From: Escherichia phage AV115
Strand: one strand, 5' to 3'
DNA: 64,000 bases
Sequence record: OR352945.1
Positions within the stretch are counted from its first letter, which is position 1. Each line of letters starts with the position of its first letter. The notes beneath the pieces are model-generated. The model worked only from the letters and a program-made list of their open reading frames with translations, was not told where the DNA came from and did not search any database. Position numbers and translations under genes: made by a program. Shown piece after piece: positions 45,438 to 51,497 of the stretch.

Positions 45438-47260
45438 TATCCTAGCATCCAATCTTTACGGAGTTCAGGGTCGTTACCCATGAGCATTTCAAATAGTTCT
45501 TTCCAATTTTCAGGAAGTTTAACTACGTCGTACACAGGGTTTTGAATCATTTCTTTATATTCATCCCGCTGAAGTGAGCCCAATCCCTTGATGTATCGAA
45601 TACTATGCTTAGGCAGTGTATCTTTAACTTCTTCATACTCAGCTACAGTATAAAACCATTTTTGAGTTTTGCCAATTTGTGCAATAATTACAGGCGTTTT
45701 AACAAAGCGAATACGTCCTTGTTCAAACAATTCAGGCCAATTACTAAAGAAAGCAAGCAAAGCCGGATAAATACTTCCAAGGCCGTCATGATCGGCATCG
45801 GTCATAATTGCAATATTACGGTAGTTCGTATTCTCTGCCTTTTCACCAAGAATAAGACCGGTGATAGCACAGATATCAAAGAGCTCTTTGTTCTTCATCA
45901 TATCAGCATATGACATACCCCAGCTATTCATCACCTTACCACGTAATGGGAATCCGCCGTGTAGTTCACGGTCACGAACATCAATGAGATAACCAATTGC
46001 AGAATCACCTTCTGTTAAGAACAATGTCGTATCTGCATCTTTACCGCATTGGTTAGCTTTAATATGCTTATGAACCTTAGCTTTAGTTGCCTTTTTAGCT
46101 GCTTTAGTTTCTGCAGCCTTTTCTGCTGCCAATTTACGAGCTAATGCGGCTTCAATTATAGGCATTAAAACTGCTTCAGAATTCAAAATATTTTTTGCCA
46201 ATTTTTTTGTATCTAATTTAATATGCGTCCGAATTTCGCCATAAGGACTTGTTAAACGCTCTTTGGTTTGGGAATCAAAACGAAGGTTCTTCATTCCACG
46301 AACGAACATTAAGAGAGTGAGACATTCCTTGATGCGCGCTTTAGTCACGTCGATTTTATATTTGCGTTTAATAGCCGGAATTAATTCTTCGCAAATGTCG
46401 TCCATCACACATTCAATGTGATGACCACCGTTTTTGGTATGGATGTTATTCACATAAGTTAAATGACGGAAGCCATCTGGTGACCGTCCAATGGCAATAG
46501 AGCATCCGTCTTGTTCTTGAATGATGGTCTCTTCATCAAATTGTTTAGCAAACTTCTTAAAGTTACCTTGAATCTTTTTGCCATTAAATTTAAATTCAAT
46601 ACCAGGATAAACGACCGCCAATGTTTGGAGCCGGTCTATAGTAATATCTTGGTATATTTTTTCAAATTGATTCATTTCAAAATGTGAGAAATCAGGAATA
46701 AACTCGACCTTAGTACCGTTGTTTTTAGACGGCTTAGATTTCCAAGAAATATTATCAGCGTTATTAGAACAATTAACGGTCAATTCATTTTTACCATCTG
46801 AAGTAGTGCCAACAAAAGAGACAGAAAAAATATTTGTTAATGAAGAACCGACACCGTTTTGTCCACCCGTAACACGTTCTTTGTCGTCACCAAAGTTGCC
46901 ACCGGCTTTTGTACGTGTCCACGCCGCAACTGGTCCTGGAATTTCTTCTCCTTCAGGAGTAATAACTGTTTCTTGAGGAATACCTCGACCATTATCTTCA
47001 ACAGTCACTTTATTAGAATTTAAATCAATACTAACGGAAATTTTATTAGCATATTTGAAATTGGTTCGAATAGCTTCGTCTACTGAGTTGTCAATAATTT
47101 CATCAATTAATTTGAGAACACCTGCAACATATTTAACCTTTTTAAATTCACCGAATAGGAAACGTTCTTGTTCTTCATTGGCAACACTTCCAATATACAT
47201 GCCAGGACGCTTCAAACAATGCTCTTTATCAGATAGCATTTCAATTTTATTATCAATCAT
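45437..47260 (-). CDS. 39: DNA topoisomerase II large subunit gp39, unsplit 39+60 form
   Basis: 607 aa from ATG 47258-47260; GyrB-like ATPase and Toprim regions in one ORF. Confidence 0.9.
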   Translation of the reverse strand: MIDNKIEMLSDKEHCLKRPGMYIGSVANEEQERFLFGEFKKVKYVAGVLKLIDEIIDNSVDEAIRTNFKYANKISVSIDLNSNKVTVEDNGRGIPQETVITPEGEEIPGPVAAWTRTKAGGNFGDDKERVTGGQNGVGSSLTNIFSVSFVGTTSDGKNELTVNCSNNADNISWKSKPSKNNGTKVEFIPDFSHFEMNQFEKIYQDITIDRLQTLAVVYPGIEFKFNGKKIQGNFKKFAKQFDEETIIQEQDGCSIAIGRSPDGFRHLTYVNNIHTKNGGHHIECVMDDICEELIPAIKRKYKIDVTKARIKECLTLLMFVRGMKNLRFDSQTKERLTSPYGEIRTHIKLDTKKLAKNILNSEAVLMPIIEAALARKLAAEKAAETKAAKKATKAKVHKHIKANQCGKDADTTLFLTEGDSAIGYLIDVRDRELHGGFPLRGKVMNSWGMSYADMMKNKELFDICAITGLILGEKAENTNYRNIAIMTDADHDGLGSIYPALLAFFSNWPELFEQGRIRFVKTPVIIAQIGKTQKWFYTVAEYEEVKDTLPKHSIRYIKGLGSLQRDEYKEMIQNPVYDVVKLPENWKELFEMLMGNDPELRKDWMLG

Positions 47261-47936
47261 TAGATTTTCTCTCAAATTGCATGACTATATTTTTGTATGA
47301 ACCTTCCGGAAATCCACGTTTAATGCTTTCTTTAGCAAATTTCCCAACCTTTGGTTTATCCAATTCTAACCATAATTTATATAAAGCAGATTCATATTCC
47401 CATACAGGACTTTTACGATTTTTAAGCCCACACTTTATAAGCGCTTCCTTTGTATGTTTCTTATTATAAAATGGATTGTTTTTGCCACTCATTGCTTTAG
47501 AATGTTCCGGGCGCTTAATTCCATACATCGGATTAAGATCGCCTTTCTTGATAACGGATTGTAGTTCAATAGTTTCTTCAGAGTGATTGTGTCCATAAAA
47601 TGGATTTAACTCTTTTGAAACATCCATACCAAAGCACCCATCGACTGTGGCATAAGACATGTTGAAAAATTTTTCAGATTTAACCACATTATGCAATTTC
47701 TGGTAATACAACTCACAAAACGTCGCTTCTTCCCGTGTATCAAATTCGCCAATAATACATGAATCAAATAAATGAGGATTATCTTTTATCTCTTTATCAT
47801 AAATTTGTTTATATTTTTTCGACTTTACCGTACCATGATAGTGATTGTTTGTATGTTTATCAAGATAAGTAGACCCTATATAAAACGGTGGCAACTTATC
47901 GCCTGTGTATATTGTTAAGTATGTTATGTATTTCAT
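47253..47936 (-). CDS. GIY-YIG-like homing endonuclease (seg-like, 227 aa)
   Basis: N-terminal YITYLTIYTGDKLPPFYIGST and repeated NPFYG/NPMYG/NPFYN motifs; overlaps gene 39 start. Confidence 0.65.
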   Translation of the reverse strand: MKYITYLTIYTGDKLPPFYIGSTYLDKHTNNHYHGTVKSKKYKQIYDKEIKDNPHLFDSCIIGEFDTREEATFCELYYQKLHNVVKSEKFFNMSYATVDGCFGMDVSKELNPFYGHNHSEETIELQSVIKKGDLNPMYGIKRPEHSKAMSGKNNPFYNKKHTKEALIKCGLKNRKSPVWEYESALYKLWLELDKPKVGKFAKESIKRGFPEGSYKNIVMQFERKSND

Positions 47937-47970: not shown

Positions 47971-47984
47971 AGGGCCGAAGCCCT
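47971..47984 (-). terminator. UUCG hairpin
   Basis: AGGGC-UUCG-GCCCU then U-rich tract on minus transcript. Confidence 0.45.
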
Positions 47985-48406
47985 TATTTAAATTTAATTT
48001 TCTGAAGTGCATCAATTGCAGCCAAACGCCCTTGTTCACTTTTAACTGTAACGACCACATCGCCTGATACGATCACCGAACCATCAACAAATTCTATAGA
48101 GCCTTTTTTGAAATCGACAGCTGTATCTGGTTCCGGAACTTCTTCAAAGAATTTAAATTCTGCACCATAAAGCAGAATATCACCTTGCATACTAATGATT
48201 GTACGTCCAGGTCCATCGGTTTCAGCGGCAATAATCGAAACGCCGTAACCAATCATCTCTTCCACAATAAAATCTTTGGACAATAAAGTAGTATGCAGAT
48301 TAGTATTAAGACGTTTACCAGTCGTATTAAGAATTCTCAAGAAATTATCTTCTTGTCCTTTGATAATACGATATTTCTTACCAACTTCAAAACCTTTAAA
48401 AGCCAT
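47984..48406 (-). CDS. hypothetical protein (140 aa)
   Basis: ORF followed by hairpin at 47971-47984. Confidence 0.45.
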   Translation of the reverse strand: MAFKGFEVGKKYRIIKGQEDNFLRILNTTGKRLNTNLHTTLLSKDFIVEEMIGYGVSIIAAETDGPGRTIISMQGDILLYGAEFKFFEEVPEPDTAVDFKKGSIEFVDGSVIVSGDVVVTVKSEQGRLAAIDALQKIKFK

Positions 48407-48408
48407 AA

Positions 48409-48588
48409 TTAACCCTTCTTAAGTAAGTCGTAAAAACCACCGTTCACATGTTTAGGAGCAGAAACCCGACGAGTAGACAGACGATGACATTCAGGGCAAA
48501 CATCGTTTTCTCGTTCAGAAATTCTTTTAATTTTTTCATATTCATGACCACAATCTTCAGATTGACATTTATAGTCGTATAACGGCAT
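48409..48588 (-). CDS. FmdB-like zinc-ribbon protein (59 aa)
   Basis: Hand-translated: [18 protein letters not shown]...CPECH; ATG overlaps upstream stop (TAATG); below track size cut-off. Confidence 0.5.
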   Translation of the reverse strand: MPLYDYKCQSEDCGHEYEKIKRISERENDVCPECHRLSTRRVSAPKHVNGGFYDLLKKG

Positions 48589-49019
48589 TATTGTTCCTTA
48601 AAGTGAGCTTTCAACATTTGATACAAAGACCATGCCTGGTCGTTATTTTCGATAGTAATCGTCATCACCGGAAATTCAGACAATTCATCAAGTTCACCAG
48701 AATCTTGCTCTTCGGACGCTTGATATGGATTTCCAACTTCGTCAAAGAATTCTGCTTCATTCGTGGAGAGCCAGATAAAGTTTTCATCAAGGATATCACC
48801 GCCTGTTGCGTATCCAACCGTGCCGGTAGATGTCACAATTTTAGTAGGACGACCAAGATGGTCAACATCTAATACTTTAAATGGTTCCATGCCAAGACGT
48901 CGTGCATAAATCCCATTATCAGTGTGGTCTTTAATAAACTCTTCTTGGACACGTTTATCTTTAAATTGATACCACGAGTTAACGCAGAATTTATTAGCCA
49001 TTAGTAAGTTTCCTTCCAA
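48588..49019 (-). CDS. hypothetical protein (143 aa)
   Basis: ORF only. Confidence 0.45.
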
Positions 49020-49810: not shown

Positions 49811-49831
49811 ATTATTCTCCTCTGGTTGATA

Positions 49832-49866
49832 TGGTTATAATATCAAAACCAGAGGAGAAGTAAACA
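49832..49866 (-). promoter_or_regulatory. T4-type early promoter
   Basis: Minus strand GTTTAC, 17 nt, TATTAT. Confidence 0.5.
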
Positions 49867-49869
49867 ACT

Positions 49870-50289
49870 TTATGCAAAAGATGCTGGACAATATTTTTTG
49901 ATTTGGAACTCAGGAACTACCATGAACTGTCCAGCAAAAACAATGTTATAAAGCTTGACGCCATCTTCAACCCATTGGTCCGAAATAAAACCAGCAACTT
50001 GATTCGTTGTCCATGGAGACCCATCAGTTGCGGCAGCAATAGTAAATTCATGGTCTTTTACAACTAAAACTGACCTGCACAGTTTCCATTTGAACGCTTT
50101 TTCTTCTGGTTCAATGAACTGGCTTGAGACGTAACCAATGTTACCATTAACATCTCGAACTTTAACTTCGTTACGTCCAAAAACCGGATCACTCACAGAA
50201 AGAACTTCAACCAACTTCCCGGCAACTTTAGAGCGAGAAGCAACAGATACATATACGTAATCACCTGTAGAGAGATTCACAATATTCAT
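49870..50289 (-). CDS. hypothetical protein, tandem paralogue A (139 aa)
   Basis: Shares SxASRSKxAG, EVKVR, FKWxLC and GFISDQWVEDGxKLYNIVF blocks with the next ORF. Confidence 0.5.
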   Translation of the reverse strand: MNIVNLSTGDYVYVSVASRSKVAGKLVEVLSVSDPVFGRNEVKVRDVNGNIGYVSSQFIEPEEKAFKWKLCRSVLVVKDHEFTIAAATDGSPWTTNQVAGFISDQWVEDGVKLYNIVFAGQFMVVPEFQIKKYCPASFA

Positions 50290-50298
50290 AATAATTCC

Positions 50299-50754
50299 TT
50301 AAGCTTTACGAGGAGACACATAGCGAGTGATTTCAGATTCTTTAACAACTCGGAAGTCACCTAAGAATACAATATTGTATAACTTTTCACCATCTTCAAC
50401 CCATTGGTCGCTAATGAAGCCACACATAGTATCAGTTTTGCTTGGATAACCGTATTCATCGATGAAGTCAAATTCTTTATCAGTCTGGAATTCAACACCT
50501 TTACACAAGGCCCATTTGAACTGTACATTAGGTTCAGTAGAAGCAGATGGAGCGCTCACACGAGTTTCCAGGAATTTAGGACTTACGTAAGCGTACTGAG
50601 TATCCTGACGTCCAAAACTAGGAATGATTCGAACTTTAACTTCTTTAATACGTCCCATGCCATTTGTGCGAAGTCCGACAACTTCAACCAGACGACCTGC
50701 AGCTTTAGAACGAGAAGCTGTCGATACACGTTTAATTTCACCAATATTAATCAT
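50299..50754 (-). CDS. hypothetical protein, tandem paralogue B (151 aa)
   Basis: Start moved to ATG 50752-50754 (GAGAGA RBS) because early promoter at 50780-50815 covers the track start. Confidence 0.5.
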   Translation of the reverse strand: MINIGEIKRVSTASRSKAAGRLVEVVGLRTNGMGRIKEVKVRIIPSFGRQDTQYAYVSPKFLETRVSAPSASTEPNVQFKWALCKGVEFQTDKEFDFIDEYGYPSKTDTMCGFISDQWVEDGEKLYNIVFLGDFRVVKESEITRYVSPRKA

Positions 50755-50779
50755 ATTTTTTCTCTCTTTGTTTAAGTTG

Positions 50780-50815
50780 AATTCATTATACTCCAACCAT
50801 CCTTGGTTGTAAACT
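50780..50815 (-). promoter_or_regulatory. T4-type early promoter
   Basis: Minus strand GTTTAC, 18 nt, TATAAT. Confidence 0.55.
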
Positions 50816-50819
50816 GGTT

Positions 50820-51497
50820 TTATCGCTGTTTTACACTTAACGGGTCAGGATTCTCAGGGACATCTTCAAGGCCAAGCGCATAACGCTGAGCATATTTTAA
50901 CATCAAAATATCTTTAGCACAATCATGAATACTATCATGGGCAACGAATCCTTTTAGCGTACCCATCGGTAATGGACACATACTTAATCCTCGTGTCAAC
51001 GAGTAAGCTTCGATTGCTGTACGAATATCGCGTTGTGCCCAGAATTTAACCGGTTCTAATTTATCGGTATCAATCTCTGGTTCAAGAACACCTTCATCAC
51101 GATAGAGGTCACGAATCAAATCGACCAATATCGGGAAGTCAAAGCTCATACCACGGCACCACATCTGTGATTTCCATTGGTCAACTTTATTAGCTCGGCA
51201 ATAGTCTAAAAAGATTTTAATGCCTTCAAGCGTAGTGACATCGTCTTCAGACGGGGCCAAGTTTTTACGTGCTTCAGCTGATTGTTCTTTCCACCATTTC
51301 ATAGTGGATTTAGCGAAAACTCGCTTCCCTTTCTGAGAAGCTAAATTAAATTTAATTCGCTTACCTCGTTGAACAAGTTCTTCAAATGATTCAACAACTT
51401 CAGGGTCGGAATTATATGCAATAACCGCAAGGTCAATAACAGCCGCTTTTGATGTATTGCCGAATGTTTCAAAATCTATAATAACATCAGTGCTCAT
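50820..51497 (-). CDS. dexA: exonuclease A (DnaQ-like)
   Basis: 225 aa; N-terminal DFETFG exonuclease motif; T4 length and position before dda. Confidence 0.85.
   Translation of the reverse strand: MSTDVIIDFETFGNTSKAAVIDLAVIAYNSDPEVVESFEELVQRGKRIKFNLASQKGKRVFAKSTMKWWKEQSAEARKNLAPSEDDVTTLEGIKIFLDYCRANKVDQWKSQMWCRGMSFDFPILVDLIRDLYRDEGVLEPEIDTDKLEPVKFWAQRDIRTAIEAYSLTRGLSMCPLPMGTLKGFVAHDSIHDCAKDILMLKYAQRYALGLEDVPENPDPLSVKQR

Follow-up and report, generated by a model that had tools for sequence, protein, structure and literature searches.

Features and divergence of the known motB/motB-like gene pair in an RB69-like Escherichia phage

The 64,000-nucleotide stretch of Escherichia phage AV115 (OR352945.1) that we analysed, here called the window, carries on its minus strand the gene order dda, dexA, motB, motB-like, motB.2, cef, goF, 39.2 and ORF005c. 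Over the 2.4 kb between 49200 and 51600 it matches Escherichia phage AV118 (OR352948.1, Mosigvirus) at 100% identity, and JS09, APCEc01 and other RB69-like phages at about 96-97%. We refer to motB as copy 1 and to the motB-like gene as copy 2. The features of this segment are:

50820..51497, minus strand: dexA
50785..50813, minus strand: early-type (sigma-70 / T4-early-type) promoter-like site, TTTACA-17-TATAAT, 11/12 matches, the top score in the promoter scan
50299..50754, minus strand: motB (copy 1), 151 aa, ATG start at 50754
50290..50298, minus strand: 9-nt spacer ggaattatt, between the copy 1 stop and the copy 2 ATG
49870..50289, minus strand: motB-like (copy 2; RB69ORF010c family), 139 aa, ATG start
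49811..49869, minus strand: hairpin at the 3' boundary of the pair, RNA fold -24.1 kcal/mol, z = -6.4
49864..49837, minus strand: promoter-like site in the hairpin, TTTACT-16-TATTAT, TG-extended, with its -10 element in the loop
49286..49810, minus strand: motB.2

Copy 1 was also listed as a longer open reading frame that begins at a TTG (50299..50796, 165 aa) and whose extension overlaps the TTTACA-17-TATAAT site. The true start is almost certainly the ATG at 50754, as annotated in the identical AV118 record.

A preliminary description of the window had reported two neighbouring related ORFs here, sharing the blocks S-x-ASRSK-x-AG, EVKVR, FKW-x-LC and GFISDQWVEDG-x-KLYNIVF-x-G-x-F-x-VV, and had proposed a pairwise alignment as a check. 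Both ORFs are present, with 139 and 151 aa (the latter from the ATG at 50754), and every quoted block appears in the BLASTP alignment, which gives 64/145 identities (44%, residues 6-133 and 2-145) at E 2e-32, far above chance. Chance similarity is ruled out by this value together with the independent matches of both proteins to PF17613. In a codon alignment the two genes are 55% identical at the nucleotide level over the aligned codons, and their longest exact run, 20 nt, falls within the DQWVEDG block. The two genes thus have the features of tandem paralogs: they are neighbours on one strand, 9 nt apart, with significant similarity over their full length. The pair had been placed upstream of dexA; it lies downstream (3') of dexA and is transcribed in the same direction, on the minus strand.

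Both proteins match the Pfam MotB family PF17613, copy 1 with 131.4 bits (E 3.7e-38, residues 1-146) and copy 2 with 79.3 bits (E 3.7e-22), against a whole-protein gathering threshold of 25 bits, and both match phrog_1671 ("MotB-like transcriptional regulator"; E 1.8e-64 and 2e-51). Copy 1 is 48% identical to T4 MotB over its full length (E 3e-45) and copy 2 38% identical (E 5e-27), while copy 2 is 88% identical to RB69ORF010c (E 5e-77). Like other members of the MotB family, both lie in a Tevenvirinae genome, in its early region from dexA to cef. In relatives copy 1 is annotated: the AV118 record has it as a CDS, and those of JS09 and RB69 call it MotB. Because both match the MotB profiles, a comparison that either could have failed, the two ORFs are very probably motB and its tandem paralog, RB69ORF010c or 'MotB-like', in a Mosigvirus genome. 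The earlier assignment to a motB/cef/goF neighbourhood was right about the region, but it did not recognise that the ORFs themselves are motB and its known paralog.

The existence of this pair is not new. The RB69 GenBank record of 2003 annotates RB69ORF010c as "similar to motB" (AAP75912.1), Nolan et al. 2006 cited "RB69ORF010c with motB" as a case in which a conserved gene has a paralogous duplicate beside it (PMC1524935), Patterson-West et al. 2021 stated that RB69 "had two copies of motB" (PMC7827196), and both genes carry the label "MotB-like transcriptional regulator" in RefSeq and PHROGs. The duplicate pair is therefore already known, annotated and published for RB69-like phages, and the details of expression, selection, divergence, distribution and recombination given below are modest refinements. 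Indeed, RB69ORF010c and copy 2 are the same gene, in the same place right after motB and with the same 9-nt junction, and show allelic differences only. Adjacent paralogous duplicates of a conserved early gene also occur as alt, alt.-1 and alt.-2 in T4-like phages, which belong to a different family (ADP-ribosyltransferases); Nolan et al. 2006 named the alt paralogs and motB/ORF010c in one sentence (PMC1524935).

The promoter scan found no site comparable to 50785..50813 between copy 1 and copy 2. The same promoter sequence is found upstream of both motB.1 and motB in JS09, and the site in the dexA-motB intergenic region is likely to be the promoter of the motB/motB-like pair. The junction of the two genes, aaagct-TAA-ggaattatt-ATG (aaagctTAAggaattattATG), is invariant in 13/13 genomes, even though the flanking coding sequence has diverged to a dS of up to about 0.6 in the same genomes. 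Within it, the TAA stop and the spacer form an AAGGA Shine-Dalgarno-like element for copy 2. A single predicted promoter upstream, none between the genes, and an invariant 9-nt junction with AAGGA suggest that the pair is expressed as one early bicistronic transcript with translational coupling.

The two copies also share one reading frame, with only TAA and three codons (GGA ATT ATT) between them (50287-50301, minus strand). Read-through of the TAA, if it occurred, would give a 294-aa MotB/MotB-like fusion; translational coupling is the simpler reading.

At the other end of the pair, none of 200 shuffled sequences folded as stably as the hairpin at 49811..49869. Its 3' arm holds the motB.2 Shine-Dalgarno sequence (GAGGAG), paired with the upstream arm. 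The hairpin is kept in Mosigvirus relatives and absent from RB27 and pSe_SNUABM_01, where motB.2 is elsewhere, and as a predicted structure it marks the 3' end of the motB/motB-like unit. The fold also predicts that RNAs reading through from upstream would have the motB.2 ribosome-binding site masked, and that in RNAs begun inside the hairpin the site would be free.

The two copies differ in linker and in charge. In an alignment of 61 family sequences from both clades, 35 columns never vary. Among them are VKV, FKW, three residues of the SRSK loop (S18, R19 and S20) and most positions of the DQWVEDG-x-KLYN-x-VF-x-G core; the loop residue K21 and the core residue Q105 are kept in 90% or more of the sequences. 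Missing from copy 2 are a 6-residue hairpin (IIPxxG) and the entire inter-domain linker. Medians over cluster representatives, with net charge as a rough stand-in for affinity to DNA, are as follows:

Copy 2 (25 representatives): linker 0-5 aa; N-terminal core net 0 (range -2 to +1); C-terminal domain net 0
RB69-type copy 1: linker 15-40 aa; N-terminal core net +7; C-terminal domain net -4
Single-copy MotBs: linker 0-50 aa (median 26); N-terminal core net +5; C-terminal domain net -1

In this genome, the N-terminal domain plus linker of copy 1 has a net charge of +7. A flexible linker and a net-basic N-terminal domain, which are traits of T4 MotB and not a formal criterion of the family, are thus present in copy 1 and missing from copy 2. 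T4 has a single motB, whose product shares its domain order and its dexA-cef neighbourhood with copy 1; unlike copy 2, it has a linker and a basic N-terminal domain. Its C-terminal domain has a net charge of +2, whereas that of RB69-type copy 1 is acidic (net -4). Within the copy-1 clade the MotB linker is hypervariable in length (15-50 aa, alignment columns about 70-125), and acidic repeat-like insertions such as VEEVESHDGYVCESNDIRGVVAQ are present or absent among otherwise close relatives.

The AF2 models of both proteins are confident and consist of two beta-barrels, an N-terminal KOW/SH3-like barrel with the SRSK loop and a C-terminal barrel with FKW and the DQWVEDG-x-KLYN core. The copy 2 model has pLDDT 84.6 and pTM 0.66, and that of copy 1 has pLDDT 80.8 and pTM 0.46, with linker residues 66-76 disordered (pLDDT below 50). 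With its higher pTM, copy 2 would be a rigid body of two barrels, and copy 1 more like beads on a string. The barrels resemble the 53BP1 Tudor, Spt5 KOW6-KOW7 and NusG KOW domains in fold only (8-21% identity, TM-scores about 0.3), with no sequence relationship, and this resemblance does not imply an aromatic-cage or NusG function for either copy. The published HHpred assignment of the MotB C-terminal domain is an OB-fold (PMC7827196), as against the Tudor/KOW-like resemblance seen here. A PDB sequence search with copy 1 gave no match at E ≤ 1, so the PDB has no MotB structure. T4 MotB.1, which has been described as an LSm-like N-terminal domain followed by a MotB-type C-terminal domain (Kim et al. 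2025, PMC12152347), has in common with the pair only the C-terminal core motif G-W/F-V/I-T/S-DQW-I/V-EDG-x-x-L-x-N-V/I-V (60% over 30 residues). Its LSm/SH3-like N-terminal domain is unrelated, and its gene, which lies in the same cluster in relatives, is absent from this window.

For copy 1 the median dN/dS over 13 genomes (78 pairs, Nei-Gojobori method) was 0.24; for copy 2 it was 0.14. These values indicate that both copies are under purifying selection and functional, and that copy 2 is the more constrained; a pseudogene reading of copy 2 is excluded by the same analysis (dN/dS 0.14). Between the paralogs dN is 0.52 and dS about 1.8, which is saturated; the duplication is old. Because copy 1-T4, copy 1-copy 2 and copy 2-T4 are nearly equidistant (48, 44 and 38% identity), we judge it to be of about the same age as the split between the T4-type and RB69-type MotB lineages.

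A tblastn search of 50,697 phage records with copy 2 found 773 records with a MotB homolog, at 981 matching places. Identity to copy 2 was at least 80% in 207 records, between 60 and 80% in none and below 60% in 566, and among the matches listed the high-identity records have two places each and the low-identity records one. A second copy is thus found in about 207/773 (about 27%) of the phage records with a motB homolog, which supplies the copy number in relatives that the preliminary description had proposed to check. That description had read the pair as a local duplication followed by divergence. Duplication and divergence are borne out by adjacency on one strand, the 9-nt gap, the 44% identity and membership of one family, but the event is not confined to this genome: it is old and common to about 200 sequenced phages. 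Carriers of copy 2 are mostly Mosigvirus, and include the Tequatrovirus phages RB27, Ac3, KRT47 and pSe_SNUABM_01, as well as phiE142. An IMG/VR scan yielded two loci with copy 2, too few for statistics, so the comparison drew on GenBank phage loci. The C-terminal domain of RB69-type copy 1 was present in 201 records, essentially the same set as copy 2. We rejected this co-occurrence (207 versus 201 records) as proof of co-adaptation, since the segments are physically adjacent; it may be simple linkage over a distance of 9 nt.

Hybrid motB genes are found in Logan assemblies, at the following loci:

L006:1373-1894
L007:4001-4492
L008:2199-2690
L009:37-528
L010:1368-1859
L011:555-1073

In one of the hybrid proteins (P0028) a copy-1 N-terminal domain is joined to a copy-2 C-terminal domain, with the crossover at FKW, and in another (P0031) the crossover lies within the 20-nt identical block. 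A third (P0029) combines a T4-type N-terminal domain and linker, a copy-2 C-terminal domain and a T4-type 3' tail, that is, a double crossover; it occurs on 5 contigs from at least 4 runs, and it is the only full-length motB-type gene between motB.1 and cef there. P0029 was not found in sequenced phage isolates (best match 76%), and no hybrid motB genes were found in GenBank isolates, so that they are known from Logan assemblies alone. Collapse during de Bruijn assembly is unlikely to have produced the hybrid junctions because all junction homologies are shorter than 31 nt. The copy-1 N-terminal domain is also swapped in LF82-1 and phiE142. Together, the hybrid sequences suggest that the C-terminal domains are exchangeable modules, with domain swapping between the paralogs.

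Few T4 early "host-takeover" proteins have a defined activity; MotB is among them, as a phage nucleoid-associated protein countering H-NS. T4 MotB binds host and modified phage DNA without sequence specificity and co-purifies with H-NS and StpA, and H-NS footprints are altered; on its overexpression 75 host genes go up and H-NS-dependent repression of specific host DNA is altered. Its overproduction is toxic, and burst size gains 2-fold with MotB (PMC6070864, PMC7827196). Nucleoid compaction by MotB has been proposed (Son et al. 2021, NAR, as cited in PMC13096335). By homology to the T4 protein, the basic N-terminal barrel of copy 1 (net +7) would coat DNA and antagonise H-NS-type silencing. 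The single early promoter would give a bicistronic transcript on which translation of copy 2 is coupled to that of copy 1, and the C-terminal module that copy 2 shares with MotB might then act with it on the same nucleoprotein complexes, or might meet a different partner.

What copy 2 itself does can be read in several ways. We tentatively favour a sub- or neo-functionalised MotB that would act jointly with MotB or on another partner and would not be a second bulk DNA coater, because it has kept the invariant residues, lost the charge and the linker, and is under tight constraint; this reading is possible but short of probable. The related MotB.1 carries the C-terminal module as well. Given the retained SRSK loop, copy 2 could still bind DNA much as MotB does. 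More specifically, and more doubtfully, copy 2 might be a dedicated partner or modulator, forming a two-component nucleoid-associated system with the RB69-type MotB and its acidic C-terminal domain, or a MotB-type activity retargeted to another host silencer. The locus would then have two alternative solutions, a split pair as in RB69 or, as in T4, a single all-basic MotB, and the pair would travel as a cassette between genera with its C-terminal domains as exchangeable modules.

Alternatively, both copies might do the job of T4 MotB, coating DNA non-specifically and antagonising H-NS, and having two might simply raise MotB activity. All family-invariant residues and the same predicted fold in both copies agree with this, as do the one promoter predicted for both and the segmental amplification of useful accessory genes described in T-even phages (PMC13096335). 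However, the copies are just 44% identical with saturated dS, the linker and the N-terminal positive charge are missing from copy 2 in 25/25 cluster representatives, and copy 2 is the more tightly constrained of the two. Because this combination is typical of a distinct retained function and not of a dosage copy, we regard simple redundancy as unlikely. Decay runs into the same constraint: that copy 2 is a non-functional remnant might be read from its length (139 versus 151-197 aa) and its lack of segments found in all other MotBs, but an ORF that is intact, with at least 80% identity, across about 207 phage records, a median dN/dS of 0.14, an invariant start context and a confident AF2 fold make it extremely improbable.

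The origin of copy 2 can likewise be read in another way, as a diverged motB allele of another Tevenvirinae lineage that recombined in beside the resident motB. The near-equidistance of the three lineages (copy 1-T4 48%, copy 1-copy 2 44%, copy 2-T4 38%) fits this account, and a mosaic locus with N-terminal domains swapped in LF82-1 and phiE142, the occurrence of the cassette in both Mosigvirus and Tequatrovirus, and the hybrid genes in assemblies are in line with it. Yet no phage with a copy-2-type gene as its sole motB was found in the GenBank phage set, the records with at least 80% identity always show two places among the matches listed while the rest fall below 60%, and duplication is the simplest explanation of a head-to-tail tandem with 9 nt at the junction. 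We regard such an import as unlikely.

The occurrence of a conserved and tightly constrained second copy, charge-altered and linkerless, in roughly a quarter of the motB-bearing records suggests that the single-gene picture from T4 is incomplete for T-even phages. Studies of MotB/H-NS antagonism in RB69-like phages should take both genes into account.

Several neighbouring genes also deserve mention. The gene motB.1, which JS09, RB69 and most Mosigvirus relatives carry between dexA and motB, is missing from AV118 (window 50755-50819). JS09 (L002:4040-4760) has near-identical early promoters, …CCAA(A/G)GATGG(T/A)TGGAGTATAAT, before motB.1 and before motB, whereas AV118 has a single one, with the motB.1-promoter sequence up to the common TATAAT followed by the motB leader. 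Because the AV118 promoter is a hybrid of the two JS09 promoters, the roughly 560-bp motB.1 gene appears to have been removed in AV118 through recombination between the repeated promoters. In RB69 (L005:1482-1978), motB.1 (132 aa) and the 29-aa RB69ORF012c resemble one motB.1 split by a frameshift, and RB69ORF012c (…VELLNVVHAGDFSVVPRSAVVNILN) is identical to the C-terminus of MotB.1 in JS09, where the protein is intact (164 aa). What Patterson-West 2021 lists as a '29-aa peptide, Category 3' is thus probably the frameshifted tail of motB.1 rather than a gene of its own.

A 227-aa ORF (47253-47936, minus strand) sits between ORF005c and the gene for the topoisomerase II large subunit, a place where JS09 and RB69 have no gene. 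It has a seg-type GIY-YIG-like N-terminus and three NUMOD3 motifs (PF07460, E 8.7e-12), and looks like a free-standing homing-endonuclease insertion. At this position the AV118 record has only a 135-aa hypothetical CDS, one base off the ORF end. Finally, goF (48588-49001) and ORF005c (47984-48406), both on the minus strand, flank 39.2 and match phrog_622 with E 5e-38 and 3e-20; a direct BLASTP comparison of the two gives only E 0.04, too weak to call them a clear paralog pair. They may nevertheless form a second and far older pair of paralogs, within the LSm-like GoF/MotB.1/Frd.2 family that Kim et al. 2025 described (PMC12152347).
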